Source: Bacillota bacterium
GTDB taxonomy: Bacteria; Bacillota; Dethiobacteria; DTU022
Length of the DNA: 59,395 nt
Assembly: GCA_012840855.1 (NCBI GenBank)
Contig: DUVX01000033.1
Span: forward strand, 1-59,395
Direction: 5' to 3'
Shown here: in pieces, positions 46,494-59,395 of the stretch
Position numbering within the stretch: the stretch's first letter is position 1
Layout of the letters: each line of letters opens with the position of its first letter
Translations under genes and position numbers: made by a program
Notes under the pieces: model-generated
The model's input: only the letters and a program-made list of their open reading frames with translations
The model's database searches: none
What the model was told of the DNA's origin: nothing

Positions 46494-47585
46494 ATGATCG
46501 AATTTGAAAATGAAAGGCCCCAGTTTACTTCGATCAAGGTCGTTGGTATCGGCGGCGGTGGAAACAACGCCGTCAACCGGATGATCAGCGCCGGTTTAAA
46601 GGGCGTCGATTTTATCACTGTCAACACTGATGCTCAGGCGCTACATCTGGTGCAGTCGCCGGTGAAGTTGCAGATCGGGGAGAAACTGACAAAGGGGCTG
46701 GGTGCGGGAGCCAACCCGGAGATCGGCCGCCAAGCCGCCGAGGAAAGCCGGGAGCTAATCGAGGAAAATCTGCGCGGGTCGGATATGATCTTTCTGACCG
46801 CCGGGATGGGCGGCGGTACCGGTACCGGGGCCACCCCGGTGCTCGCCGAAGTGGCCCGGGAGCTGGATGCTTCGCCGCTGAAGCGGCCCCTCATCGTGGG
46901 CGTGGTGACGAAACCGTTTAGCTTCGAGGGGCGGAAGCGGCAGCAGCAGGCCGAGGAGGGGATCGCCCGCCTGAAGGAGAAGGTCGATACGCTTATCACC
47001 ATCCCAAATGATCGCCTTTTTCAGGTTATCGACAAGAAAACCCCGATCCTGGAAGCCTTCCGGGTGGCCGACGATGTGCTGCGGCAGGCGGTTCAGAGCA
47101 TCTCCGATCTCATCGCCGTTCCCGGCCTGATCAACCTTGACTTTGCCGATATCCGCACGGTTATGTCCGAGACGGGCCCGGCGTTGATGGGTGTGGGCGA
47201 GGGCAGCGGTGACGACCGCACCGCCAAGGCGGCCCGGGCGGCTACGAGCAGCCCTTTGCTGGAAACATCCATTGACGGCGCCACCGGTTTGCTGATCAAT
47301 GTCACCGGAGGGACCGATCTGGGCCTCTTTGAAGTCCAGGAAGCGGCCGATATCGCCGGTGAGGCCATCGATCCCGATGCCGTCGTTATTTTCGGGGCCA
47401 CCATCGATCAGAAGCTGCAAGATAGGGTGCGGGTGACGGTGATCGCCACCGGCTTCAAGGGCAAACAGCGCTCCCAGCAGCAGAGGCTGCCGGAGATAAA
47501 TTACAGCGACTACGCTCACAGCGAAGAGATTGACCGCCCGGCCTGGTCGCGGTTTCAAGAGAGGGAGAAGATCGCGGAAAGCTAG
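46494..47585 (+). CDS. ftsZ: Cell division protein FtsZ
   Basis: [24 protein letters not shown]. Confidence 0.98.
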
Positions 47586-47613
47586 GGATTTCTTTAAAAT
47601 CCGGACTGCGCAT

Positions 47614-47643
47614 GATTCCCCGCCTGAGGCGGGGAATTTTTTT
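47614..47643 (+). terminator. Rho-independent terminator after ftsZ
   Basis: ATTCCCCGC-CTGAG-GCGGGGAAT followed by T-run. Confidence 0.85.
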
Positions 47644-47775
47644 GTCACTATTTCCTCGCAGCGCGGCGCCAAAGTGTGACAGACTTTTGCAGCGCCGGGG
47701 ATCTACAATAGGGCATATCCATAATCGCGGGCTCATATATATTTACAGAACAAGCCCCCGCGGGCGGGGTGAAAA

Positions 47776-48648
47776 ATGTATCTTGATCTTCTTTTTTCTA
47801 TTAGTGTGCTGGTGCATTACTCCCTTTTGCTGCTAACGGCAAAATTTTTTCATCGCCAGAGCAGCAGCGGGCGCCTGCTGATGGGGGCCTCCCTGGGAGC
47901 CTTCGCCGTCCTGCTCCTGCCGCTGCCGCTTTCTAAAGTGGCGGCGGTGGTCCTAATCCTGGTGCTGCCCCTGCTGATGGTCCTGGTGGCCTTCTGGCCG
48001 CTGCGGCTGCGGGAGGCGATCTATTCCTGGGGCGCCTTCTTTCTCTTTTCCTTCATGCTGGCCGGCGCGCTTACGGCGCTGCTCAACCTTGAACGGTTCC
48101 GCCGCCTCTTCTCCACGGCGGCGGGGAGCCTGGTTCTCTGCGGCTCCTGCGCCGCTCTTTACCTGCTCTTTTCCCTGCTACGGCCGCTGTCGGAAGAGAA
48201 GGGGTGGCAGAGGCTCTGGAGCGTAGAACTGCAGGTGGCCTGGCGGGGAAGAGAAAAAAGGGTGCCGGCGTACCTCGATACGGGAAACCGGTTGCGCGAT
48301 CCCTTCTCCAGCCTGCCGGTGATCGTCATCGATTACCGCTGCCTTGAAGAGATGCTGCCGCCGGCGCTCTACCGGGTTCTGGCCGATGAGGGGGAGCAGT
48401 CCTGGCGCGCCCTGGAGCAGCTTCCCGATCCGGGGCTGGCGCGCTCTTTTACCCTGATCCCCTGTTATGGAGTGGGCCGTGGGGAGAAACTCCTGCTCGG
48501 CCTCAAGCCCGATGATGTCATTTTGTACGAGGGGGGACAGAGCCGTTCCCTGGGATCAAAAGTTTATCTCGGATTAACCCGGCGCGGTTTTGGACCGGCG
48601 GCTGATTACCGGGCCCTGTTGCCGCCGGATCTGCTCCATGCCGGGTAG
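47776..48648 (+). CDS. spoIIGA: Pro-sigmaE processing peptidase
   Basis: Multiple N-terminal TMs, LDTGNRLRDP aspartic motif; directly upstream of sigE. Confidence 0.9.
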   Translation: MYLDLLFSISVLVHYSLLLLTAKFFHRQSSSGRLLMGASLGAFAVLLLPLPLSKVAAVVLILVLPLLMVLVAFWPLRLREAIYSWGAFFLFSFMLAGALTALLNLERFRRLFSTAAGSLVLCGSCAALYLLFSLLRPLSEEKGWQRLWSVELQVAWRGREKRVPAYLDTGNRLRDPFSSLPVIVIDYRCLEEMLPPALYRVLADEGEQSWRALEQLPDPGLARSFTLIPCYGVGRGEKLLLGLKPDDVILYEGGQSRSLGSKVYLGLTRRGFGPAADYRALLPPDLLHAG

Positions 48649-48674
48649 CCCGGTAAGAAAAGGGGTGGTCTATT

Positions 48675-49406
48675 TTGGATAAAGGGAGATTGCTGGAGCT
48701 TAAAATCAAATTGATCCTGTTGCGATTGAGGCGTTTTTTCGGTCTGGCGTACCTCGACTATCTTTACTATGTGAGCAGCAGCGAAGCGCTGCCGCCGCCG
48801 CTGAGCCTCGAAGAAGAGGGTTACCTGCTGGAAAAGCTGAAAAAAGGGGATCGGAATGTCTGCACCGTCCTCATCGAACGAAACCTGCGGCTCGTCGTCT
48901 ATATCGCTCGGAAGTTCGAAAATACGGGTATCAGCATCGATGATCTTGTCTCTATCGGGACAATCGGCCTGATCAAGGCGGTTAACACCTTTGATCCTCA
49001 CAAGAATATCAAGCTGGCAACCTACGCCTCCAAGTGCATCGAGAATGAGATCCTTATGTTCTTGAGGCGCAATAACCGGGTGCGCAGTGAGATCTCCTTC
49101 GACGAACCTCTCAATGTGGATTGGGACGGCAACGAACTTCTTCTTTCCGATGTTCTTGGCACCGAGGGCGATCTGGTACTGAAGAATATCGAAAAAGAGG
49201 TGGAGCGCAAGCTGCTCTACCTGGCCATGGATAAGTTGAGCAGCCGGGAACGCCGGATCATGGAGCTGCGCTTCGGCCTGACGAACGGCGTGGAGAAGAC
49301 GCAGAAAGAAGTGGCCGAATTACTGGGGATCTCGCAGTCCTATATCTCCAGGCTGGAGAAGCGGATCATCAAGCGCCTGCAGCGAGAAATCCGGAAGATG
49401 GAATAG
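48675..49406 (+). CDS. sigE: Sporulation sigma factor SigE
   Basis: Pro-sequence, [41 protein letters not shown]. Confidence 0.97.
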
Positions 49407-49424
49407 TCCGCAGAAGCCCCGGCA

Positions 49425-49452
49425 GTATAAAATGAGCCTCCTGGGAGATACT
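49425..49452 (+). promoter_or_regulatory. sigmaF/sigmaG promoter of sigG
   Basis: GTATA-N14-GGAGATACT, same layout as the B. subtilis spoIIIG promoter. Confidence 0.75.
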
Positions 49453-49488
49453 CTAGTTATCTCTCAACAGCTGCAAGGGGCGAAAAAC

Positions 49489-50259
49489 TTGAACAAAGTG
49501 GAGATCTGTGGCGTTAATACGTCCAAGCTTCCTGTGTTGAAAAATAAGATCATGCGGCAGCTTTTTGTGTCGATGCAGCAGGGAGACGGCGGGGCCAGGG
49601 AGAAGCTGATCAGCAGCAACCTGCGCTTGGTTCTAAGCGTGATCCAGCGATTTAACAACCGTGGTGAATATGTTGACGATCTTTTTCAGGTGGGCTGTAT
49701 CGGCCTGATCAAGGCCATCGATAATTTTGATCTGGGGCAAAACGTCAAGTTTTCAACCTATGCTGTCCCCATGATCATCGGCGAGATCCGCAGATACCTG
49801 CGGGACAACAATCCTATCCGGGTGAGCCGTTCCCTGCGCGACATCGCCTACAAAGTGCTCCAGGTAAGGGATGTGCTGGCCAACAGGCTTTCCCGGGAGC
49901 CGTCGATCCGCGAAATCGCTGCCGAGCTAAAGATCGAACCGGAAGAGATCGTCAACGCCCTCGATGCTATCCAGGAGCCGGTCTCCCTCTTTGAGCCGAT
50001 CTACCATGACGGGGGAGATCCCATCTTTGTCATGGATCAGATCTGCGATGAGAAGAACAATGATCAGCGCTGGCTGGAGATCCTGGCGATTAAGGAAGCG
50101 ATGACCAGGCTCAGCGAGCGCGAGAAGATGATCCTGACGATGCGTTTCTACCGGGGCAAGACCCAGATGGAGGTGGCCGACGAGATCGGCATCTCCCAAG
50201 CCCAGGTCTCTCGTCTGGAGAAGGCCGCCCTGGGCCATCTGCGGAAGCATGTTCAGTAA
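49489..50259 (+). CDS. sigG: Sporulation sigma factor SigG
   Basis: NKVEICGVNTSKLP, DDLFQVGCIG, TQMEVADEIGISQAQVSR. Confidence 0.97.
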   Translation: MNKVEICGVNTSKLPVLKNKIMRQLFVSMQQGDGGAREKLISSNLRLVLSVIQRFNNRGEYVDDLFQVGCIGLIKAIDNFDLGQNVKFSTYAVPMIIGEIRRYLRDNNPIRVSRSLRDIAYKVLQVRDVLANRLSREPSIREIAAELKIEPEEIVNALDAIQEPVSLFEPIYHDGGDPIFVMDQICDEKNNDQRWLEILAIKEAMTRLSEREKMILTMRFYRGKTQMEVADEIGISQAQVSRLEKAALGHLRKHVQ

Positions 50260-50334
50260 GCAAGACTATTCGAATTGCCTCCCCGCCGCCATCAGTCTAT
50301 AATATAGAGAAAGATCTACCGGAGGGGAGATCCA

Positions 50335-50577
50335 TTGATCAGAATAAGCGAGTTGCGGGAACGCGAAGTAGTCAATGTTAATGACGGCCGCAGGCTGGGG
50401 GCGATCCGCGATCTGGAGCTCGATCTGGAGAAGGGGACAGTGAAGGCGATTATTGTGCCCGCCGCCGGCCGGATCTGGGGCAAACTTTCCCGCACCCAGA
50501 GCTATCTGATCCCCTGGGAAAAGATCGTCAAGATCGGCGTTGATACCATTCTCGTCGATCATCCTGTGGGCGACTAG
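50335..50577 (+). CDS. ylmC: YlmC/YmxH PRC-barrel sporulation protein
   Basis: RISELR.REVVN..DGRRLG, IPWEKIVKIG.D.ILV. Confidence 0.92.
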   Translation: MIRISELREREVVNVNDGRRLGAIRDLELDLEKGTVKAIIVPAAGRIWGKLSRTQSYLIPWEKIVKIGVDTILVDHPVGD

Positions 50578-50657
50578 GGGTTCACATTATCTGCGCAGAT
50601 ATGGGGGTTAAAGAGGCGGTGGATCCGCCTTTGGCTGGATTCGGGGGGGGAAGAGCG

Positions 50658-52580
50658 ATGGGCGAAACACCTGCTTCACAGAATGAGCCGCTACAGGAGG
50701 AAGTTCCCTTCAGGGAAATCCGGAAGCGGGACGGCCGGGTAGTTGTATTTGAGCCCGCTAAGATCACCGATGCTATCTTCAAGGCGGTTCAGGCCGTGGG
50801 GGGGAGCAACCGGGAGATCGCTGAGAACCTGACCTGGCAGGTGGTTCGCTACCTAAAAAAGGCGGGCTACGGGGGGATCGTCCCGGCGGTGGAAGAGGTC
50901 CAGGATTCGGTGGAGAAGGTGCTGATTGAAAATGGACATGCCCGCACAGCGAAGGCCTACATCCTCTACCGTGATCGGCGGACTAGGATCCGCGAAGCGA
51001 AGACGGAGCTCATGGATGTAGTTAAGGAGATTTTGGTAGAAACCAGCCGCGAAAGCGCTGCTATCAGCAGCTCGCCCTCGGCAAAGATGCTACAGATCGC
51101 CATGGCAGCGAGCAAAAAATATTACCTGAGCAACCTTCTCCCGGGCGATTTTGCTTCTGCACACCGGGAAGGCTCTCTACATATCCATGCCCTGGGCTAT
51201 TACAGCAAGACGATCAATTCCTTGCAGATCGATCTGGCGCAGCTGCTGAAGGAAGGTTTTAATGCGGGCTGCGGCTATATCCGTCCACCGAAAGGGATCG
51301 TTGCTGCGGCGGCGCAGGCGGCGATAGCTTTGCAGAGCAGTCAAAATGATATGTTTGGGGAGCAAAGCTTTCCTCATTTTGATCGTCATATGGGCGGGGT
51401 GATCCGCTCCCTGCAAGAAAAGCCCGGGGAGGAAGAGATCTACCAAGCCATGGAAGGGCTCGTCTGCAATCTCAATTCGATGTATACCCGGGCGGGGGCC
51501 CAGCCGCCCCGCTCCACCATAAACCTGGGGACCGATACCACCGCCGAAGGGCGCGCCGTTACCGGGGCGATCCTCGAGACTTTCCACCGCGGCCTGGGGC
51601 ATGGCGAAGACCCCCTTTTCCCCCACCTGGTCTTCAGGGTCAGGAAGGGGATCAATTTTGGACCGGCTGATCCAAACTTCGACATCTACCGGTTGGCTTT
51701 GACCGTGGCATCGCGGCGAAGAAATATCGCCTTCAGCTTCATGGACAGTACCTTTAACCGGGATTTTGGCGGCGAGGTTGCCTATACGGGCTCCGGGAGC
51801 CGGGTCATCGGTAACCGCCACGGACCGGAGAGCCCGGCGGGCCGGGGCAATATCGCTTTCACCACCCTTAACCTGCCCCGGGTGGCTTTCGAGAGCGGCG
51901 GCGGGGTAGAGCTTTTTTTCGTCGAGCTGGACCGGATGCTGCGCCTGGCAGCCCGTCAGCTGATCCACCGCTACGGTGTCGTCTCGCGGCTGCGGATCAA
52001 AGAGCTGCCCTTCCTGATGGGCGGGGGGCTCTACTGCGGCTCGGACAGGCTGGCTCCCGAGGATCAGATCGGCGGGGCGATCAAGCACGGCACCCTGGCG
52101 ATCGGCTTTATCGGCCTGGCAGAAACGCTTCAGCTGCTCACCGGAAAGCACCACGGCGAGGACGGGGAGGCGCTGCAGCTGGGGCTGCAGATCGTCGATC
52201 ATATGCGCCGGCGGTGCAACCAGTTCAGCGATGAATATGATCTCAATTTCGCCCTGCTGGCGACGGAGGCGGGGGGCGTGGGTGTCCGCTTTGCCCGGAT
52301 CGACCGGGAGCGCTTCGCAGCGGCCCCGGGGGTGGCGGACAAAGAGAGCTATACCGCTTCATTCCATCTGCCGGCGGGCAGCTCTGTTGAGACAGCAGAA
52401 AAAGTCAAAATTGAAGGTCAATTTCATCGCTACTGCAACGCCGGCCACTGCAGTCATGTGAAGCTGGGGGAGCGTCGTTTGCAAAGTGTCGAGGCGATGG
52501 ATGGAATCGTTCGCCTCATGGATGCCGCCGATCTCGGCCTGGGCAGGATCAGTTGCTATTCTGGCGGTTTGCAGAGCTAA
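50658..52580 (+). CDS. ATP-cone protein with class III ribonucleotide reductase (NrdD)-like core, apparently catalytically inactive
   Basis: ATP cone IRKRDGR...VEEVQDSVEKVL...TAKAYILYR; NrdD core motifs (GRGNIAFTTLNLPR, IGFIGLAE); both catalytic Cys positions read Ser and the glycyl-radical C-terminus is absent. Confidence 0.85.
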   Translation: MGETPASQNEPLQEEVPFREIRKRDGRVVVFEPAKITDAIFKAVQAVGGSNREIAENLTWQVVRYLKKAGYGGIVPAVEEVQDSVEKVLIENGHARTAKAYILYRDRRTRIREAKTELMDVVKEILVETSRESAAISSSPSAKMLQIAMAASKKYYLSNLLPGDFASAHREGSLHIHALGYYSKTINSLQIDLAQLLKEGFNAGCGYIRPPKGIVAAAAQAAIALQSSQNDMFGEQSFPHFDRHMGGVIRSLQEKPGEEEIYQAMEGLVCNLNSMYTRAGAQPPRSTINLGTDTTAEGRAVTGAILETFHRGLGHGEDPLFPHLVFRVRKGINFGPADPNFDIYRLALTVASRRRNIAFSFMDSTFNRDFGGEVAYTGSGSRVIGNRHGPESPAGRGNIAFTTLNLPRVAFESGGGVELFFVELDRMLRLAARQLIHRYGVVSRLRIKELPFLMGGGLYCGSDRLAPEDQIGGAIKHGTLAIGFIGLAETLQLLTGKHHGEDGEALQLGLQIVDHMRRRCNQFSDEYDLNFALLATEAGGVGVRFARIDRERFAAAPGVADKESYTASFHLPAGSSVETAEKVKIEGQFHRYCNAGHCSHVKLGERRLQSVEAMDGIVRLMDAADLGLGRISCYSGGLQS

Positions 52581-52593
52581 AGGGGAACTAATT

Positions 52594-53463
52594 TTGGTGG
52601 ATACAGGGTCTGAAAAAGGCTTTCAGCTGCGCCGGCAGGGGGATCTTCTCTACATGCAGGCGCCGTTGCTGGCGGGTTGCGATGGCGTAATTCACGCTTT
52701 TTCGACACGCCGAGGCGGCTGCAGCAAAGGGGATATGGCCGCGCTGAATACTGCCTTTCATACCGATGATGATACCGGGAATGTCTTTGAAAACCGGCGC
52801 CGTTTTTTGGAGCCGCTCGGTTTTCATCCCAACGAAGTTATTGCGGCGATCCAGGTGCATGGGAGCAGGGTCCGCCGCGTGGAGGCGGTAGATCGCGGGC
52901 GCGGCGCCGCCCCGGGTAATTTTTTGGGTGAGGGCGACGCCCTGATTACGGATCTGCCGGGCCTGCCCCTGACGGGCTACGCCGCCGACTGCCTGCTGCT
53001 CTTTATTGTCGATCCTGGAGTGCCGGCGGTAGCGCTGGCCCACGCCGGGCGGCAGGGCACGCTGGAGAATATGGCTGGAGCGGTGGTGGCGGCGCTGAAT
53101 TCACACTTTAATGCCGACCCCGCGCGGATGCTGGTGGTGCTCAGCCCCGGCATCTGTGGCCGCTGCTATACCGTGGAGCGTGATCTGGCTGGGGATTTCA
53201 GGGAGGACGGCTGGTGTAAAAAGCCCTATCTGTGGGAGGGCACGCCAGGGGAATTTCACCTCGATCTGGCGGCGATAAACCGGCGGCAGCTGCTTCGGGC
53301 TGGGATCAGGCCCGGCAATCTGGCCGGATGCCGCTGGTGCAGCTCTTGCAGCCCCGCCCTGTTTTATTCTTACCGGCGCGACCGGGGGAAAACGGGCCGG
53401 ATGATGGGTCTCATCGCCTTGCAAGGCGGCGGGGACGGAGCGGCGGGGGGCGGTGGGGCTTGA
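52594..53463 (+). CDS. pgeF: Peptidoglycan editing factor / YfiH-family protein
   Basis: HAFSTRRGG, QVHG, ADCL, AHAG, YSYRR. Confidence 0.9.
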   Translation: MVDTGSEKGFQLRRQGDLLYMQAPLLAGCDGVIHAFSTRRGGCSKGDMAALNTAFHTDDDTGNVFENRRRFLEPLGFHPNEVIAAIQVHGSRVRRVEAVDRGRGAAPGNFLGEGDALITDLPGLPLTGYAADCLLLFIVDPGVPAVALAHAGRQGTLENMAGAVVAALNSHFNADPARMLVVLSPGICGRCYTVERDLAGDFREDGWCKKPYLWEGTPGEFHLDLAAINRRQLLRAGIRPGNLAGCRWCSSCSPALFYSYRRDRGKTGRMMGLIALQGGGDGAAGGGGA

Positions 53464-54602
53464 ACGGGCGGCGGGTAAGGAGGGCTGCTGCCCGGGAGCG
53501 GCTGCGCGTGCTGCCGGGAAAGGGGCGCCGTTTTGCCCATCTCCGGCAGGCTGCTATATTCTATATAATTCTGGGATTGTTGGGTCTGCTGATCCTGCAG
53601 GCTGCCTACCACTGGATCGGGCCCCATTTTTTAGCTCGGCGGCTGCAGATAGTGACGGCGGTGGCGGGAGCGCTGGAGAAAAAATTGACGGTGGAGGGCC
53701 TGCACACCAGGGAGGAGCAGCTTCTTACGGCGCCTTGCTCCGGAGTGATCATCGAGCTGGCCCCTCCGGGGGAGAGGGCGCCCGCCGGGAGCGCAGCGGC
53801 GGTGATCGCCCCCCTTTCCGCAGAGGAGAAGCGGCAGCTGGAGGAGCAGGCAAGCTCTACGGAAAGCCCCTGGGAAAGATTAAAGGGTTTTATCTCCGAA
53901 CTTATCGGCGGAACCGGTGAAAAAAAGGGAGAGGCTCCTTTCCTGATTACAGGCACCATGCCGCCATGGACGGCTGAAAGCGTTACGCTGCCTCTTCCGA
54001 GGGCGGGCCTGCTGCTGCACCGCCTGGATGGTTGGGAGGAGAGCAGTGAAAGCCCCTACTTTTCGGCGGAACAATACGCCGAAATTTCCAAAGAAACATT
54101 TGTAGCGCAAGAAGGACTCTGGGTAGAGCAGGGGCAGCCCTTAGTGAAGCTTATCGACAACTGGCAGTGGTATTATAACCTGCTGTTACCGCTTGATCCG
54201 GGGCGGACTCTGGCAGCGCGGGAAAGCGTCCTGTGCAAATTTGACTTTGCCCCGGATGAACCCGTAAAGGCCCTCCTCATGGAGGCGGAGATCGATGCGG
54301 AGGCGGAAGAAGTTCGGCTGACCTATTGCATCAGGGAGCAATTTCCCGGTTTTGAAGGGCTGCGCTGGTCCAGGGCGGAGCTCCTGCTGGAACGCAGTGA
54401 GGGGATCATCATTCCCGCCGCCGCCCTGGTGGAGCGCGAGGGGGAGAGGGGCGTCTATCTTAACCGGGCCGGAGCGGTCAAATTTCAACCCGTGACGGTG
54501 CTGGCTGAGGAGGGTGAGCAGCTGGCAGTGGAAGGGCTCGAGCCCGACAGCATGGTGATCACCCATCACGCTCTAGTGCGGGAGGGGCAGCGCCTCGATT
54601 GA
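53460..54602 (+). CDS. Putative membrane-fusion (HlyD-like periplasmic adaptor) protein
   Basis: N-terminal TM, barrel-sandwich APCSG, GIIIP.AALV...GVY; usual position before yggS. Confidence 0.7.
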   Translation: MNGRRVRRAAARERLRVLPGKGRRFAHLRQAAIFYIILGLLGLLILQAAYHWIGPHFLARRLQIVTAVAGALEKKLTVEGLHTREEQLLTAPCSGVIIELAPPGERAPAGSAAAVIAPLSAEEKRQLEEQASSTESPWERLKGFISELIGGTGEKKGEAPFLITGTMPPWTAESVTLPLPRAGLLLHRLDGWEESSESPYFSAEQYAEISKETFVAQEGLWVEQGQPLVKLIDNWQWYYNLLLPLDPGRTLAARESVLCKFDFAPDEPVKALLMEAEIDAEAEEVRLTYCIREQFPGFEGLRWSRAELLLERSEGIIIPAAALVEREGERGVYLNRAGAVKFQPVTVLAEEGEQLAVEGLEPDSMVITHHALVREGQRLD

Positions 54603-54676
54603 CCCGCCGGGATGCGGCCGTTAATATAACAGACGAAGCAGCTTTTTGGCTGCTGCATGGAAGTGAGTGAGGCGAG

Positions 54677-55363
54677 ATGCTGGCAGATAACCTTGGAAAA
54701 ATTCACAGAGAGATCGATGCAGCGCTTGAACGGTCGGGACGCCGGGGGGAGAAAGTGCGCCTGGTTGCGGTAACCAAGACCGTGGGCCCCGAGCAGGTAA
54801 GTGCGGCGGCGGCACTGGGGTTGCGCGACTTCGGCGAAAACCGCTTTCAAGAAGCTCGGCAGAAACTGCAGCTTTTTCCCGGGCTGCGGTGGCACTTTAT
54901 CGGCCATCTGCAGACCAACAAAGCGGGGGAGGTGCTGGCGGGATTCACGCTAATCCATTCCTTGGACCGGATCAGGCTGGCCCGCAGGCTGCAGTCCCGG
55001 GCGGAGCGCTCGGGGAGGGAGGCCCGCTGCCTGGTGCAGGTGAATATCTCCGGCGAAAAGAGCAAGTTCGGCCTGTCGGAGAAAGAGCTTCCCGATTTTC
55101 TGGAGGCGATGCGCGATTTTCCCCGGGTTCGGGTGGAGGGCCTGATGACGATGGCTCCCCGGGTGGAAGATCCGGAAGAGGTGAGGCCGCTGTTCCGCCG
55201 TCTGCGGGAGCTGCGGCGGAGCTGTGCTCGGCCGGGGCTGGAGTTGCGAGAGCTCTCCATGGGGATGACCAGCGACTATGTCGTCGCTGTGGAGGAGGGG
55301 GCCACCATCGTGCGCATCGGCACCGCCCTCTTCGGTGCACGTACGATGCAGTCAGAGCGGTAA
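54677..55363 (+). CDS. yggS: PLP homeostasis protein YggS/YlmE
   Basis: LVAVTK, FGEN, WHFIGHLQTNK, LSMGMT.DY..A.EEG.T.VRIGT. Confidence 0.95.
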   Translation: MLADNLGKIHREIDAALERSGRRGEKVRLVAVTKTVGPEQVSAAAALGLRDFGENRFQEARQKLQLFPGLRWHFIGHLQTNKAGEVLAGFTLIHSLDRIRLARRLQSRAERSGREARCLVQVNISGEKSKFGLSEKELPDFLEAMRDFPRVRVEGLMTMAPRVEDPEEVRPLFRRLRELRRSCARPGLELRELSMGMTSDYVVAVEEGATIVRIGTALFGARTMQSER

Positions 55364-55422
55364 AGAGGGTGCAGGGGCCGAAGGGCCCCTGCTGCCGATC
55401 TTTGTAAAAGCGAGGTGAGGGT

Positions 55423-55758
55423 ATGGCAGAGTATGGTGAGGGGGGCGGCCGGCCAAATCCGGCTCCCGGGGATGCCGTCCCGGGAGCGGGTACCAAAAAA
55501 GAGATCGCCGGTACGGTGGCAGCGCTGCGGTTAGATGCGGTGATGGCACTCGGGTTCAACCTCTCCCGTTCCCGGGCGGTGCTCCTGATCAAGGGGGGGC
55601 TCGCGGAGGTGAACGGACACCGGGTGGAAACACCAGGCTACCGGCTGAAGCAGGGTGATCTCGTCTCTTTACAGAGACGGGGGAGCCTGGAGCTCGCCGC
55701 CCTGGAGGGGAAAAGTCGTAAAGGAAGGTGCCGGGTAAAACTTTATAAATTTACCTGA
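55423..55758 (+). CDS. S4 RNA-binding domain protein (C-terminal part of YlmH only)
   Basis: TVAALRLDAV...SRS...VNG...GDLVS..RRG...SRKGR; SD GAGGTGA. Confidence 0.75.
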   Translation: MAEYGEGGGRPNPAPGDAVPGAGTKKEIAGTVAALRLDAVMALGFNLSRSRAVLLIKGGLAEVNGHRVETPGYRLKQGDLVSLQRRGSLELAALEGKSRKGRCRVKLYKFT

Positions 55759-55762
55759 TGCG

Positions 55763-55790
55763 GCAGGATTGGCCAGAAGATTGTCGAAAT
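55763..55790 (+). promoter_or_regulatory. sigmaH-like promoter with overlapping Spo0A box upstream of divIVA
   Basis: GCAGGATT at 55763; perfect TGTCGAA at 55782-55788. Confidence 0.5.
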
Positions 55791-55835
55791 AAAGTTATAG
55801 AAAGATTTTACCGATCAGGACAGGGAGGAAGAAAG

Positions 55836-56456
55836 ATGACATTAACTTCAATGGATATACATAACAAAGAATTCACACACTCCTTTCGGGGTTATTCCGT
55901 CGAGGAGGTCAACGATTTCCTTGATCGTGTTGCCAAAGATTTTGAGCAAATCCTGCGGGACAACCTTGAGCTTAAAGATCAGATCAACCAACTCAACGAG
56001 AAGATGAAGGGCTACCAGAAGCTTGAAGCGACGATGCATAACGCCATCGTTATCGCCCAGGAAGCGGCCGAAGAGGTGAAGCAGAATGCCAAGAGAGAAG
56101 CAGACCTGATCCGGCGCGAGGCCGATCGCGAAGCCCAGAAAATAATTGAGGATTCGCGGTACCGCTCCAGCAGGATTCTCACGGAGCATGATGAGCTTTT
56201 CAAACAGGCCCATGTGTTTAAGATGCGTTTTCGCTCCTTTCTCGAAGCGCAGATAGCAGCGCTAGAGATGGAAGATTGGATGGAGCCTTCGGCGCAGCAG
56301 ACCTACCGGCCTGCGCCTTCGAGGCAGGCTCCGCCGGCCCAGCCGCCGCTCCGTCAATCAACACCGTACCAGCAGGCGCCGCCTCAAACGGCTTCCGCCC
56401 AGCCGCAGCAGTCGCCGCCGCCGCTGCCCGGTGAGCATCATGAGTATAAGGATTGA
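55836..56456 (+). CDS. divIVA: Cell division initiation protein DivIVA
   Basis: LT.MDIHNKEF..SFRGY..EEVNDFLD, coiled coil, P/Q-rich tail; SD GGGAGG. Confidence 0.93.
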   Translation: MTLTSMDIHNKEFTHSFRGYSVEEVNDFLDRVAKDFEQILRDNLELKDQINQLNEKMKGYQKLEATMHNAIVIAQEAAEEVKQNAKREADLIRREADREAQKIIEDSRYRSSRILTEHDELFKQAHVFKMRFRSFLEAQIAALEMEDWMEPSAQQTYRPAPSRQAPPAQPPLRQSTPYQQAPPQTASAQPQQSPPPLPGEHHEYKD

Positions 56457-56481
56457 TTATCGGGGGCAATCTTGTTATAAT
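56453..56481 (+). promoter_or_regulatory. sigmaA promoter of ileS leader
   Basis: TTGATT-N17-TATAAT with extended TG. Confidence 0.8.
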
Positions 56482-56499
56482 CTAATAAAATAAGCTTCA

Positions 56500-56756
56500 A
56501 CGGCGATGAACGGGCCAGTAAGCAGCGGGTAGTCTCTTCAGAGAGCCGGCGACGGTGTAAAACCGGTGGGGCATCGCTGCCGAATATCCCCCGGGAGCCC
56601 CTGTGCCAAATCCAAAAAGGGAGAGTAGACACAGGCGGTGCCCCCGTTAAAGGCCCAGCAATGAGTGGCCGCCGACCTGTATCCTGGGGCGGCTAGCAGG
56701 GTGGTACCGCGGGAGAAGATCTCGTCCCTAGTAGAAGTGGGGCGGGATTTTTTATT
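56500..56756 (+). ncRNA. T-box riboswitch (Ile, ATC specifier)
   Basis: GCGATGAA start, AGAGA/GGTGTAA stem I, GAAT-ATC specifier, T-box AGCAGGGTGGTACCGCG, terminator ATCTCGTCCC...GGGGCGGGAT-TTTTT. Confidence 0.92.
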
Positions 56757-56776
56757 TGAACAGGAGGCGTCAGGAG

Positions 56777-59395
56777 ATGAAGGATTACCGGGAGACATTG
56801 AACTTGCCCCGTACGGATTTTCCCATGCGGGCGCAGCTACCCCGGCGGGAGCCGGAGATTTTAAATTTTTGGGAAGAGATCGAGATCTACAAAAAGGTGC
56901 TGCAGAGGCGGCGGGGAGCGCCCCGTTTCATCCTGCATGATGGACCGCCCTACGCGAACAATGATATTCATATGGGGACGGCCCTGAATAAGGTGCTGAA
57001 GGACTTTATCGTCAAGTATAAGACGATGCGCGGTTACGATAGCCCTTACGTGCCCGGCTGGGATACGCATGGCCTACCCATTGAGCACCAGATCATCAAA
57101 AGCCGGGGCATCGATCGAAAAGAGGTTTCCCCCATCGAATTTAGGCGGATGTGCCGCGATTACGCCCTCGAGTATGTCTCCATCCAGCGCGAGCAGTTCC
57201 GGCGTCTGGGTGTGCGGGGCGACTGGAAAGATCCCTATCTCACACTTGCACCCTCTTTTGAAGCCCGCCAGATCGGCGTCTTCGGCGAGATGGCTGCACG
57301 CGGCTATATCTATAAGGGGCTGCGCCCTGTCTACTGGTGCCCTCGCTGCGAGACCGCTTTGGCGGAGGCCGAGGTGGAATACGGCGACCACCGGGCCGAT
57401 TCGATCTATATCAAGTTCCCGGTGCTCGAAGATCGCGGCCTGCTAGGCGGAGCAGCGGGCGCCTTCTGCCTGATCTGGACGACAACAGCCTGGACGATAC
57501 CGGCCAATCTGGCCATCTGCCTCCATCCTGATCTCGATTATGTGCTCGTGGAGGCGGGGGCGGAGAGATATCTCCTCGCCGAGGGGCTTCTCGAGAGCGT
57601 TACCGATGCGCTGGGCGGCAAGGGCTGGAAGGTGCAGCGCCGTTTCAAGGGGCGGGAACTGGAAGGGGTTGTCTGTCGCCATCCCCTTATCGATCGGGAG
57701 TCGCCGCTGATCCTGGGGGATCACGTCACCCTGGAGCAGGGCACCGGCTGCGTCCATACCGCGCCGGGGCACGGCCTGGAAGACTTCATTGTGGGGCGGC
57801 TTTACCGGCTGCCGGTGCTGAGCCCCATCGACGACCGCGGTTATTTTACCGATGAAGCGGGCGAGTTCGCCGGGCTTACGTACACAGCGGGCGGTGAAGC
57901 GGTGATCCGAGCCCTGGAGCGAGAAGGGCGGCTGGCGAAGGCATCGTCTATCGAGCACCAGTATCCTCACTGCTGGCGCTGCAAGGAGCCGGTAATCTAC
58001 CGTGCCACAGAGCAGTGGTTCGCCTCCATCGACGGCTTTCGCCAGGAGGCACTGCAGGCCATCCGCCGGGTTAAGTGGACTCCCGCCTGGGGGGAGGAGC
58101 GGATTCACAATATGGTTGCCGAGCGTCAGGATTGGTGCATCTCCCGGCAGCGGATCTGGGGGGTGCCCATCCCGATTTTCTACTGCCGGGACTGCGGTGA
58201 GGCGATCATCGATCCTCAGGTCATCGAGGGGGTCTCGAGCCTCTTCGCCCGGGAGGGCTCCGACAGCTGGTTTGTCCGGGAAGCGTCGGAGATCCTGCCG
58301 CCGGGATATCGTTGCCCTGCCTGCGGCGGCGGCTCTTTTCGCAAAGAGCATGATACCATGGATGTCTGGTTTGATTCCGGGACGAGCCATTTTGCCGTTC
58401 TCGAGGGGAGGCCGGAGCTGCACTGGCCGGCAGATCTCTACCTCGAGGGAAGCGATCAGTATCGCGGGTGGTTCCACTCCTCGCTGCTTACAGCAGTGGC
58501 GGTGCGCGGCGAGCCGCCCTACCGCGCTGTGCTTAGCCATGGCTGGGTAGTCGACGGCGAGGGGCGGAAAATGTCGAAGTCGCTGGGCAATGTTATCGCC
58601 CCCGAGGAGATCGCCGGGCAGTACGGCGCCGATATCCTACGGCTCTGGGTTGCTTCGGCCGATTACACCAGCGATATCCATCTCTCTCCAGCAATCCTGA
58701 AGCAGCTTTCTGAAGTTTACCGGAAGATCCGCAATACCTGCCGCTTTTTACTGGGTAATTGCTTTGATTTTGATCCGTCAACCCAGGCTCTCCCGTACAG
58801 CTCCCTCGAAGAATTCGACCGCTGGGTGCTGCACCGCCTGGGCCGGCTTATCGACAGGGTAACCCGGGCTTATGACAGCTATACCTATCATCTTATCTAC
58901 CAGGATCTGCATAATTTCTGCACCGTCGACCTGAGCAATTTTTATCTCGATGTGCAAAAAGACCGGCTCTACTGCTCTGCCCCCGATGATCCGGCCCGCC
59001 GCTCCGCCCAGACCGTGATGATGACCGTCCTGGAATGCCTGACCCTGCTGATGGCGCCCATCCTTACCTTTACCGCCGAAGAGCTTTGGCAACAGCTGCC
59101 CAACAAACGGTGGCCCAGCGTCCAGCTCGCCGACTGGCCCGAAGCGGATCGATCGTGGGATGATCCAGAGCTAGGCCGGCGCTGGGAGCAGCTCCTGGCT
59201 GTGCGCGACGAGGTGTCCCGTGTTCTCGAGGAGGCACGCCGGGGAAAAATCATCGGCAGCTCGCTGGGCGCCGATCTGATCCTGCGGGCCGAGGGCGATC
59301 TTTATCGGCTGCTCCGGGCCTACCGGGAGAAGCTGGCCGGGATCTTCATCGTCTCCAGTGTAGAGCTTCATGAGGGGTTGGGGAAAGCACCCGAT
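56777..59395 (+). CDS. ileS: Isoleucyl-tRNA synthetase type 1 (3'-partial)
   Basis: MKDYRETLNLP.TDFPMR, LHDGPPYAN.DIHMGT, GWDTHGLP, WTTT.WT, DWCISRQR.WG, KMSKS; runs off the window end. Confidence 0.96.
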   Translation, partial: MKDYRETLNLPRTDFPMRAQLPRREPEILNFWEEIEIYKKVLQRRRGAPRFILHDGPPYANNDIHMGTALNKVLKDFIVKYKTMRGYDSPYVPGWDTHGLPIEHQIIKSRGIDRKEVSPIEFRRMCRDYALEYVSIQREQFRRLGVRGDWKDPYLTLAPSFEARQIGVFGEMAARGYIYKGLRPVYWCPRCETALAEAEVEYGDHRADSIYIKFPVLEDRGLLGGAAGAFCLIWTTTAWTIPANLAICLHPDLDYVLVEAGAERYLLAEGLLESVTDALGGKGWKVQRRFKGRELEGVVCRHPLIDRESPLILGDHVTLEQGTGCVHTAPGHGLEDFIVGRLYRLPVLSPIDDRGYFTDEAGEFAGLTYTAGGEAVIRALEREGRLAKASSIEHQYPHCWRCKEPVIYRATEQWFASIDGFRQEALQAIRRVKWTPAWGEERIHNMVAERQDWCISRQRIWGVPIPIFYCRDCGEAIIDPQVIEGVSSLFAREGSDSWFVREASEILPPGYRCPACGGGSFRKEHDTMDVWFDSGTSHFAVLEGRPELHWPADLYLEGSDQYRGWFHSSLLTAVAVRGEPPYRAVLSHGWVVDGEGRKMSKSLGNVIAPEEIAGQYGADILRLWVASADYTSDIHLSPAILKQLSEVYRKIRNTCRFLLGNCFDFDPSTQALPYSSLEEFDRWVLHRLGRLIDRVTRAYDSYTYHLIYQDLHNFCTVDLSNFYLDVQKDRLYCSAPDDPARRSAQTVMMTVLECLTLLMAPILTFTAEELWQQLPNKRWPSVQLADWPEADRSWDDPELGRRWEQLLAVRDEVSRVLEEARRGKIIGSSLGADLILRAEGDLYRLLRAYREKLAGIFIVSSVELHEGLGKAPD

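Follow-up and report, generated by a model that had tools for sequence, protein, structure and literature searches.

A catalytically dead class III ribonucleotide reductase with a conserved ATP cone, probably retained as a nucleotide-binding protein

What keeps the gene for an anaerobic ribonucleotide reductase open when the residues that would make its product an enzyme are gone? The question is raised by contig DUVX01000033.1 of a Bacillota bacterium (assembly GCA_012840855.1; Dethiobacteria, DTU022), the whole 59,395-nucleotide (nt) stretch of which is the window analyzed here. At 50658..52580 on the + strand, the strand of all window features given below, a frame of 640 codons and a stop encodes a relative of the class III reductase NrdD; we call this protein P0001, its genome G000, and its locus L011. 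The protein has lost its catalytic features, is under selection that bears most strongly on its ATP-cone domain, and has counterparts in other lineages. We consider it likely that P0001 is a noncatalytic descendant of the resident NrdD, retained as an ATP/dATP-binding protein with its dead core as a scaffold.

The frame of 640 amino acids (aa) translates without an internal stop. An alternative upstream start (ATG 50601) gives a longer frame; the alignment of relatives begins at the 50658 start. Pfam places the ATP cone at residues 20 to 109 (50715..50984; PF03477, E = 5.6e-22) and the NRDD barrel at residues 133 to 631 (PF13597, E = 2.4e-126, 423 bits). Positions 2 to 504 of the 562 in the NRDD profile are matched and positions 505 to 562 are not, so the C-terminal part is missing. 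The score against the NrdD equivalog model TIGR02487 is 386.6, over the cut-off of 326.35. In alignment with the best solved relative, the Prevotella copri NrdD (PcNrdD; 8p23, E = 3.3e-112), Ser188 (codon 188, TCC, 51219..51221, in T-I-N-S-L-Q) stands at the first-strand cysteine Cys171, and Ser379 (TCC, 51792-51794, in Y-T-G-S-G-S-R) stands at Cys416, where the finger-loop Cys-Arg has become Ser-Gly (codons 379-380, 51792..51797). In PcNrdD, Cys171 is the second mechanistic cysteine and Cys416, at the tip of the finger loop, is the radical initiator; the NxN flap, to which a role as substrate flap is assigned, is among the most conserved NrdD motifs (PMC11226230, in part). In P0001 that flap is reduced to S-A-A at residues 133 to 135 (51054..51062), where relatives have N-A-N.

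Further motifs have changed along the core. GGQ reads GEQ (codon 235, 51360..51362), TPAEG reads TEAGG (52263..52277), YTNS reads YTAS (52350..52361), and codon 180 has gone from Asp to Gly, turning LDYY into LGYY (51195..51197). The Glu of TPAEG corresponds approximately, by offset mapping, to PcNrdD Glu581. GGQ, TPAEG, and YTNS are canonical in the 26 nondegenerate proteins of the set P0001 to P0031, with the minor YTNS variants YSNS and YANS. Because these motifs are near-invariant in relatives, their changes are not chance. Over columns at least 95% conserved in 112 active relatives, P0001 deviates at 47 of 316. Homology stops 8 residues ahead of its end, upstream of the zinc (Zn) ribbon and the RRITGYLS glycyl loop; a nonhomologous 8-residue tail and the stop (52554..52580; stop codon 52578-52580) stand where the Zn ribbon and glycyl-radical domain start in relatives. 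A weak DNA alignment to nrdG ends hints that the final codons could derive from the 3′ end of nrdG. A 13-bp spacer carrying the pgeF Shine-Dalgarno sequence leads to the TTG start of pgeF at 52594. The first-pass annotation, made from the letters alone, had described a stop-free 640-aa NrdD with an ATP cone and Ser at both cysteines, and translation, Pfam, and the PcNrdD alignment agree with it; its GEQ, TEAGG, and YTAS readings, the missing Zn ribbon and glycyl loop, and the 13-bp pgeF spacer are likewise confirmed.

An AlphaFold2 model of P0001 had a predicted local distance difference test score of 88.5 and a predicted template modeling (TM) score of 0.81, with low confidence at the former flap (residues 129 to 135). 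The top Foldseek matches were PcNrdD chains, the first being 8p2c_A, in the tetrameric state (TM score 0.83, E = 7e-50), and the model thus predicts that the NrdD fold is retained. Given that both cysteines, the flap, the Zn ribbon, the glycyl-radical domain, and the partner NrdG are absent, P0001 is predicted to be unable to work as a reductase.

How did the locus reach this state? In the relatives inspected in detail, the ancestral order is sigG-ylmC-nrdR-nrdD (∼696 aa)-nrdG-pgeF. Only 4 of 85 loci (L011, L036, L039, and L040) have no nrdR and no nrdG match beside nrdD. At 12 further loci an nrdG match is missing and at 2 an nrdR match, mostly at contig ends; L061, which lies away from an end, is a real case. 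Since the neighbors were lost at an ancestral nrdR-nrdD-nrdG locus, we read the window gene as the resident nrdD after deletion of nrdR and nrdG. The first-pass annotation had placed it in the nrdR slot, a placement that does not hold; the slot in relatives is nrdR-nrdD-nrdG, and the gene is the resident nrdD minus both neighbors.

The rest of the genome offers no partner. G000 is a 1.88-Mb metagenome-assembled genome (MAG) in 177 contigs, 92% complete, and its single NRDD match and single ATP-cone match are both the window gene. NrdR (TIGR00244) was unmatched in the 92%-complete genome, and TIGR00244 is not among the NCBIfam matches of P0001 either. In the same assembly neither TIGR02491 nor TIGR02495 gave an NrdG match above cut-off, and a query with an nrdG orthologue found only weak radical-SAM matches in G000; the same query found a 72% match in G004, of the same genus. 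The lack of nrdG that the first-pass annotation had noted nearby thus extends from the locus to the genome scans. That annotation had also held that a separately encoded glycyl-radical domain would undo its reading; no such stand-alone domain was found in G000, where all four Gly_radical matches lie in frames of 692 to 1099 aa, and no NrdG was found to serve one. G000 does encode a class II reductase, NrdJ (738 aa), with the lgN, barrel, and TSCPD domains and without an ATP cone.

Is the gene decaying? Among the best 121 homologues taken as 90%-identity clusters, 10 are without at least one of the first Cys, the second Cys, and the Gly. Five of these (P0001, P0002, P0003, P0008, and P0014) are one group, P0072 and P0103 are separate, and P0020, P0074, and P0107 are apparently fragmentary entries. 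An IQ-TREE phylogeny of 35 proteins unites the five in a single clade (support, 100/97) within the active NrdDs of the genus, with P0004 as its sister. From the clade base to P0001 it measures ∼0.67 changes per site versus 0.13 for the sister, with branches ∼5-fold longer. All five members are stop-free (640 to 685 aa) and share both the Cys188-to-Ser change and the loss of the YTNS Asn, and they have since diverged to 69 to 78% identity. Other losses are graded. The Zn ribbon is kept in P0008 and P0014, with Gly-Tyr still present in P0008; truncation at 640 aa is common to P0003 and P0001/P0002; and the finger-loop Cys is lost in P0001/P0002 only. The shared C188S and these graded losses therefore point to early inactivation, with the frame kept open through several splits.

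Within the genus, the G001 gene is of the P0008 type and follows ylmC directly, nrdR having been lost; in G002, G003, and G004 the operon is intact. A metagenome scan returned no P0003- or P0014-type locus, only a 99%-identical strain contig (L108); L143 and G003 turned out to carry active-type genes. The two separate proteins depart from the active form in other ways. P0072 (L061, 662 aa) keeps both cysteines and has lost the Zn ribbon and glycyl domain, with nrdR but no nrdG match nearby, and P0103 (696 aa) keeps the glycyl domain, but its first Cys is replaced by Gly and its NxN and TPAEG motifs have changed. On two GTDB MAG contigs (L077 and L086), nrdD is split into two overlapping frames with nrdG downstream, by a frameshift or an assembly error; these may be true pseudogenes, in contrast with the stop-free dead copies.

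Selection on the gene was estimated as the ratio of nonsynonymous to synonymous substitution rates (dN/dS), using the Nei-Gojobori method (NG86) and a three-taxon split; distant pairs were saturated for YN00. Along the G000 branch the whole gene has a dN of 0.132, a dS of 0.553, and a dN/dS of 0.24. The active branches gave 0.039, 0.393, and 0.10 (G004) and 0.036, 0.516, and 0.07 (G002). By domain, the G000 branch has a dN of 0.033, a dS of 0.542, and a dN/dS of 0.061 in the ATP cone, and a dN of 0.144, a dS of 0.516, and a dN/dS of 0.28 in the core. Between G000 and G001, both dead, the cone and linker (residues 19 to 137) have a dN of 0.108 and a dS of 0.80, a ratio of 0.135. At the strain level, L108 differs from the window gene by 13 synonymous and 6 nonsynonymous changes (dN/dS, 0.146; binomial P = 6e-5 against the 76% nonsynonymous sites expected), with no indel between the two over 4390 nt. 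Contigs from four runs hold, among the variants listed, at least 28 in the gene, 19 synonymous and 9 nonsynonymous, with no indels reported. When random substitutions were simulated, 11% of genes were stop-free after 100 and 0.25% after 300; G000 and G004 differ at 471 nt. The dN/dS values, the strain variants, and the stop simulation therefore lead us to reject neutral decay, and relaxed but continuing purifying selection fits these sequences. The view of the first-pass annotation that this is no decaying pseudogene is borne out by conserved orthologues and by dN/dS well under 1.

The constraint is unevenly spread. Counting changed columns per domain, with a column taken as conserved at ≥95% in the 112 active relatives, we found none of 52 changed in the cone of P0001 and 44 of 238 in its core (Fisher P = 1.5e-4), which leaves the cone fully constrained. 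P0003 has the same counts (0/52 and 44/238), P0008 has 0/52 and 25/238, and P0014 has 2/52 and 35/237. In the other lineages treated below, the counts are 2/52 and 41/238 for G023, 2 to 5 of 52 and 103 to 121 of 229 to 233 at six loci of the sister family, and 3/52 and 119/208 for G027. Eight active controls have 0 to 1 of 52 cone columns and 0 to 9 of 238 core columns changed. Conservation of the cone equals that in working enzymes, and it is the catalytic core that erodes. No new conserved active-site pattern appears in the changed core columns of the P0001 clade.

Has the same thing happened elsewhere? Beyond this order, among representatives of the best 150 clusters at 50% identity, the first Cys is lacking in 29 of the 123 aligned, and both cysteines in 20 of the 113 aligned at both positions; the phenomenon is therefore not confined to G000. 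A quick tree of 54 rows requires at least 4 to 5 changes of state. At the same locus in G023, from another genus of the same family, lies a gene for an NrdD of 697 aa in which Ser replaces the first Cys and GVQ, GCG, ASSPG, YSDS, and RRVSGRLM stand in place of the canonical motifs; neither nrdR nor nrdG is its neighbor. All seven sampled genomes of a sister family (f3), as well as G027 of family f4, carry ATP-cone NrdD-like frames without either Cys. Where complete, these are 627 to 653 aa long and end where P0001 ends; the G027 frame has 575 aa, and that of G039 is cut by a contig end. On a tree rooted with the second NrdD of the f3 genomes, the dead state at the locus needs three origins.

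The f3-type family (P0272 to P0322; L039, L040, and L097 to L100) comprises at least 51 clusters at 90% identity, with lengths of 554 to 655 aa. Like P0001, its members pair a cone with a dead core, ∼610 to 650 aa in all with the same end, in a ylmC-X-pgeF locus with no nrdR or nrdG there, and they show Cys to Ser, GGQ to GEQ, LDYY to LGYY, and GCR to GxG. Unlike P0001, the family has an independent and much older origin (43 to 48% identity to P0001 in the genome search), with ∼45 to 52% of the conserved core columns changed and conserved residues of its own, such as Tyr52. A same-genus pair within f3 has a dN of 0.20, a saturated dS of 2.2, and a dN/dS of ∼0.09. Nine columns changed in both lineages have a new residue fixed in f3, and at four of the nine P0001 has the identical residue: the parallel changes are D180G, C188S, G235E, and R380G, and the Glu at codon 235 is 98% conserved in the f3-type family. 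The f3 genomes, unlike G000, have a second NrdD elsewhere, and the two copies checked (L103 and L104) have all motifs intact. Two f3 genomes have further related frames. In G029, a 58-aa frame between ylmC and the dead nrdD (L097, 1816-1989, + strand) is 42% identical to the C-terminal part of NrdR and reads as a fossil of the nrdR deleted in this sister family. In G039 (C53:71435-72412), the frame after nrdR, of 144 aa, matches NrdD in the ATP cone alone (65% identity to residues 9 to 147) and could be either a stand-alone cone or a broken gene; the dead NrdD of this genome lies next to pgeF on a different contig.

The loss of nrdR accompanies the dead state at many of these loci. No NrdR was found in 8 of the 10 sampled genomes whose locus holds a dead NrdD (G000, G023, G026, G029, G031, G033, G035, and G037), a count that leaves out G001 (84% complete, partial at the locus) and becomes 9 of 11 with it. 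Of the 30 sampled genomes that lack a dead NrdD, 29 have NrdR; the remaining one, G022, is 66% complete and has no NrdD match either. These losses amount to about three independent events among kin, not to independent genomes, and nrdR lies in the same operon as nrdD. We searched for NrdR boxes with a 16-nt consensus. As a positive control, exact boxes were found just upstream of nrdR at 4 loci, along with a 3-mismatch match in L013. At ≤3 mismatches neither the window nor the nrdJ locus has a box, and at ≤2 mismatches G000 has none genome-wide; G004 has one, upstream of its own nrdR. This suggests that the NrdR regulon was mainly its own operon. Because the G004 box lies at its own nrdR only, we do not argue that the dead NrdD replaced NrdR, and we read the NrdR loss as a consequence of the death of the operon.

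The gene is apparently expressed, as judged from contigs of metatranscriptome libraries. Eleven studies of biogas, digester, landfill, and bioreactor samples account for the 20 runs in which the stretch is present, 4 of these runs being recorded as RNA. In two metatranscriptome libraries from different studies, contigs run without gaps from 50333 or 50336 past 52647, that is, from ylmC through pgeF. They begin at the start of the ylmC/ymxH-like PRC-barrel gene (50335..50577; Pfam PRC, E = 1.3e-13), which is syntenic with ylmC in relatives. A consensus scan places a sigma-70-like promoter (TTGCCT-17-TATAAT, 10/12) at 50275..50303, upstream of ylmC and ∼30 nt 5′ of the contig starts. This is a weak hint that the site may be the start of a ylmC/dead-nrdD/pgeF transcript.

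What, then, might a dead reductase do? Rather than acting as an enzyme, P0001 probably serves as a nucleotide-binding protein. If it is a noncatalytic descendant of NrdD retained to bind ATP/dATP, its history would have begun in an ancestor within the genus, with the deletion of nrdR and the loss of the first active-site Cys. Successive loss of nrdG, of the Zn ribbon and glycyl-radical domain, of the radical Cys, and of the substrate-contact motifs would have followed, while purifying selection would have continued to hold the frame and the NrdD fold, and most of all the N-terminal ATP cone. In active NrdDs, ATP or dATP in the cone repositions the cones and the active-site flap and changes the oligomeric state (PMC11226230 and PMC12662201, each in part). 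The cone of P0001 would still bind ATP/dATP and pass the signal through the dead dimeric core to a process other than catalysis of its own, probably by a nucleotide-dependent change of conformation or oligomeric state, as in the active enzymes. Such a protein could sense or buffer the ratio of dATP to ATP for a cell in which the sole reductase, NrdJ, lacks a cone. A complex prediction of cone residues 1 to 128 with NrdJ gave no answer (score 0.00; mark, 0.32) and speaks neither for nor against binding. The first-pass annotation had raised the idea of a sensor or scaffold, and this part of its proposal fits the cone-specific constraint (0/52 versus 44/238 columns; dN/dS of 0.06 versus 0.28). 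The sporulation link it added is not supported, its sole basis being the ancestral synteny with sigG and ylmC.

Several points weigh against a retained nucleotide-binding role. The proposed sensing is inferred from conservation. The core dN/dS is 3- to 4-fold that of active relatives; the lineage is therefore still eroding, and the core may be partly dispensable. The estimates themselves are rough, given a dS of 0.5 to 1 and a three-taxon NG86 split, and the dead-clade DNA comes from two members, G000 and 138 codons of G001. For the four-run contigs, 63 more variants across 6.1 kb fall outside the variants listed. An active NrdD, NrdG, or NrdR could sit in the missing 8% of the 177-contig MAG. 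The independence of the f3 and f4 cases depends on a "quick" tree search with long branches. NrdR is kept beside dead or truncated NrdDs in G027, G039, and L061, and its loss is therefore not obligatory. Finally, contigs from RNA libraries may contain DNA, and they show neither strand nor expression level.

These points leave room for other explanations. The gene could be a young pseudogene, nrdD having become dispensable because NrdJ supplies deoxyribonucleoside triphosphates, with a stop or frameshift merely not yet acquired. Lost catalysis, the deletion of nrdR and nrdG, protein evolution ∼5-fold faster than in active relatives, and a core dN/dS of 0.28 are all what decay would give, and the frameshifted nrdD copies on L077 and L086 seem real. 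This account is nevertheless largely refuted, and we regard it as quite improbable. C188S, the earliest of the inactivating changes, is common to five proteins now at 69 to 78% identity, all stop-free; dN/dS is 0.15 to 0.24 and not 1, with the cone at 0.06, as in active enzymes, and 0/52 of its columns changed; 0.25% of simulated genes are stop-free after 300 substitutions, against 471 nt between G000 and G004, and no strain indels are seen; and the same state persists across a whole sister family at a dN/dS of ∼0.09. An open frame could instead serve only the expression of what lies downstream, through translational coupling or by sparing pgeF from polarity, the protein itself being idle. The spacer with its pgeF Shine-Dalgarno sequence and the continuity of the RNA-library contigs from ylmC into pgeF suit this explanation. 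It would bar stops but would not constrain amino acids, yet synonymous changes outnumber nonsynonymous ones 13:6 between strains and dN/dS is 0.15 to 0.24; the depletion is moreover domain specific (0.06 in the cone versus 0.28 in the core), and a clean deletion of the frame would cure polarity equally well. We judge it highly improbable.

Two further explanations keep P0001 tied to reductase chemistry. As a regulatory or dominant-negative subunit, it would form a heterodimer with an active NrdD, as the first-pass annotation had also proposed. NrdDs are dimeric, with one PcNrdD monomer active at a time (PMC11226230, in part), and in f3 the dead NrdD coexists with a second one, intact in its motifs at L103 and L104. 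For G000 the proposal is not supported by any partner, since the 92%-complete genome has one NRDD match, P0001 itself, and no NrdG was found in it. At only ∼30% identity between the second NrdD of f3 and the P0005-type NrdD, a common dimer interface is doubtful, and the loop-2/specificity region (residues 261 to 280) has a conservation of 0.45 in the f3 type versus 0.95. A heterodimer is accordingly very improbable in our estimate. That P0001 is still a reductase, or another radical enzyme, using different residues or a radical domain supplied in trans, seems scarcely credible: P0001 retains neither cysteine, no flap, no substrate-contact motifs, and nothing of the glycyl-radical domain; the search of G000 for a small stand-alone Gly-radical domain was negative; and the core has changed at 44 of its 238 conserved columns. 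What such an activity could draw on is the kept NrdD fold and the four other glycyl-radical enzymes and the radical-SAM activases of G000.

A broader reading goes beyond the single nucleotide-binding protein proposed for P0001, and we offer it tentatively, as possible but rather unlikely. Dead NrdDs might be recurrently evolved stand-alone ATP-cone sensors, readers of dATP/ATP that take over sensing where NrdR has been lost. Whenever class III catalysis became dispensable, the reductase would be stripped to a cone and a scaffold, and the product would act in trans, for example, on the cone-less NrdJ or on neighboring replication, division, or sporulation functions.

No description of a dead NrdD or of noncatalytic ATP-cone proteins was found in the Creative Commons and bioRxiv literature, and a term search of the main text of a ribonucleotide reductase phylogeny (PMC9531940) returned no mention of inactive class III sequences. 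A selected, catalytically dead NrdD is thus a variant within a known family, not previously described in the literature searched. Database names of the relatives read anaerobic ribonucleoside-triphosphate reductase. Because P0001 passes the TIGR02487 cut-off and its relatives are so named, metabolic reconstructions would wrongly credit these abundant anaerobic-digester bacteria with a class III reductase. A cone fully constrained in at least three independent lineages while the reductase dies points to a selectable role of cone plus core beyond ribonucleotide reduction, one that active NrdDs may already fulfill alongside catalysis. The question raised is what an ATP cone regulates once no enzyme remains.

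The window and its genome have other features of note. The pgeF/ylmD-like gene (Cu-oxidase_4) that follows the dead nrdD extends over 52594..53463. No riboswitch turned up near the dead nrdD or nrdJ when 47000-57000 and the nrdJ locus were scanned with Rfam. A T-box leader (RF00230, 111.9 bits) lies at 56497-56732 (+), just 3′ of a DivIVA-like gene (55758-56456), and three tRNA genes stand directly upstream of nrdJ in G000 (L105, 4412-4651, − strand). On another G000 contig (C171; L106:635-3928, +), a 1097-aa open reading frame combines an activase and a glycyl-radical enzyme in one polypeptide, with Fer4_12 and Radical_SAM at residues 17 to 181 and a pyruvate formate-lyase-like enzyme with Gly_radical at residues 259 to 1077. 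In relatives, nrdD frames of 924 to 1227 aa (L089 to L092) and, in many genomes of family f1, NrdJ frames of 1106 to 1170 aa (e.g., L168 to L179) contain large in-frame insertions that split the match in two and look like inteins; such insertions are absent from the window gene and from the G000 NrdJ.

How does P0001 compare with known systems? Active class III NrdDs (P0004/P0005; 8P23; the Streptococcus thermophilus enzyme, 9D3X; and that of phage T4, 1H78) belong to the same family and have the same fold and N-terminal cone. P0001 is 74 to 75% identical to the active NrdDs of its own genus and occupies the same chromosomal locus. Unlike P0001, these enzymes have both cysteines, the NxN flap, the Zn ribbon, the glycyl-radical domain, and an NrdG partner. 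NrdR, encoded just upstream in relatives, resembles the role proposed here for P0001 in being nonenzymatic and in reading ATP/dATP through an ATP cone. In contrast to NrdR (∼150 aa), P0001 has no Zn ribbon, carries its cone on a 500-residue dead core, and gives no indication of DNA binding. Yeast Rnr4, a radical-generating subunit of class I, has lost catalytic or cofactor residues and has been retained as the partner of an active paralogue. Both proteins were kept after the loss of such residues; P0001, however, derives from a class III catalytic subunit, and no active partner was found for it.

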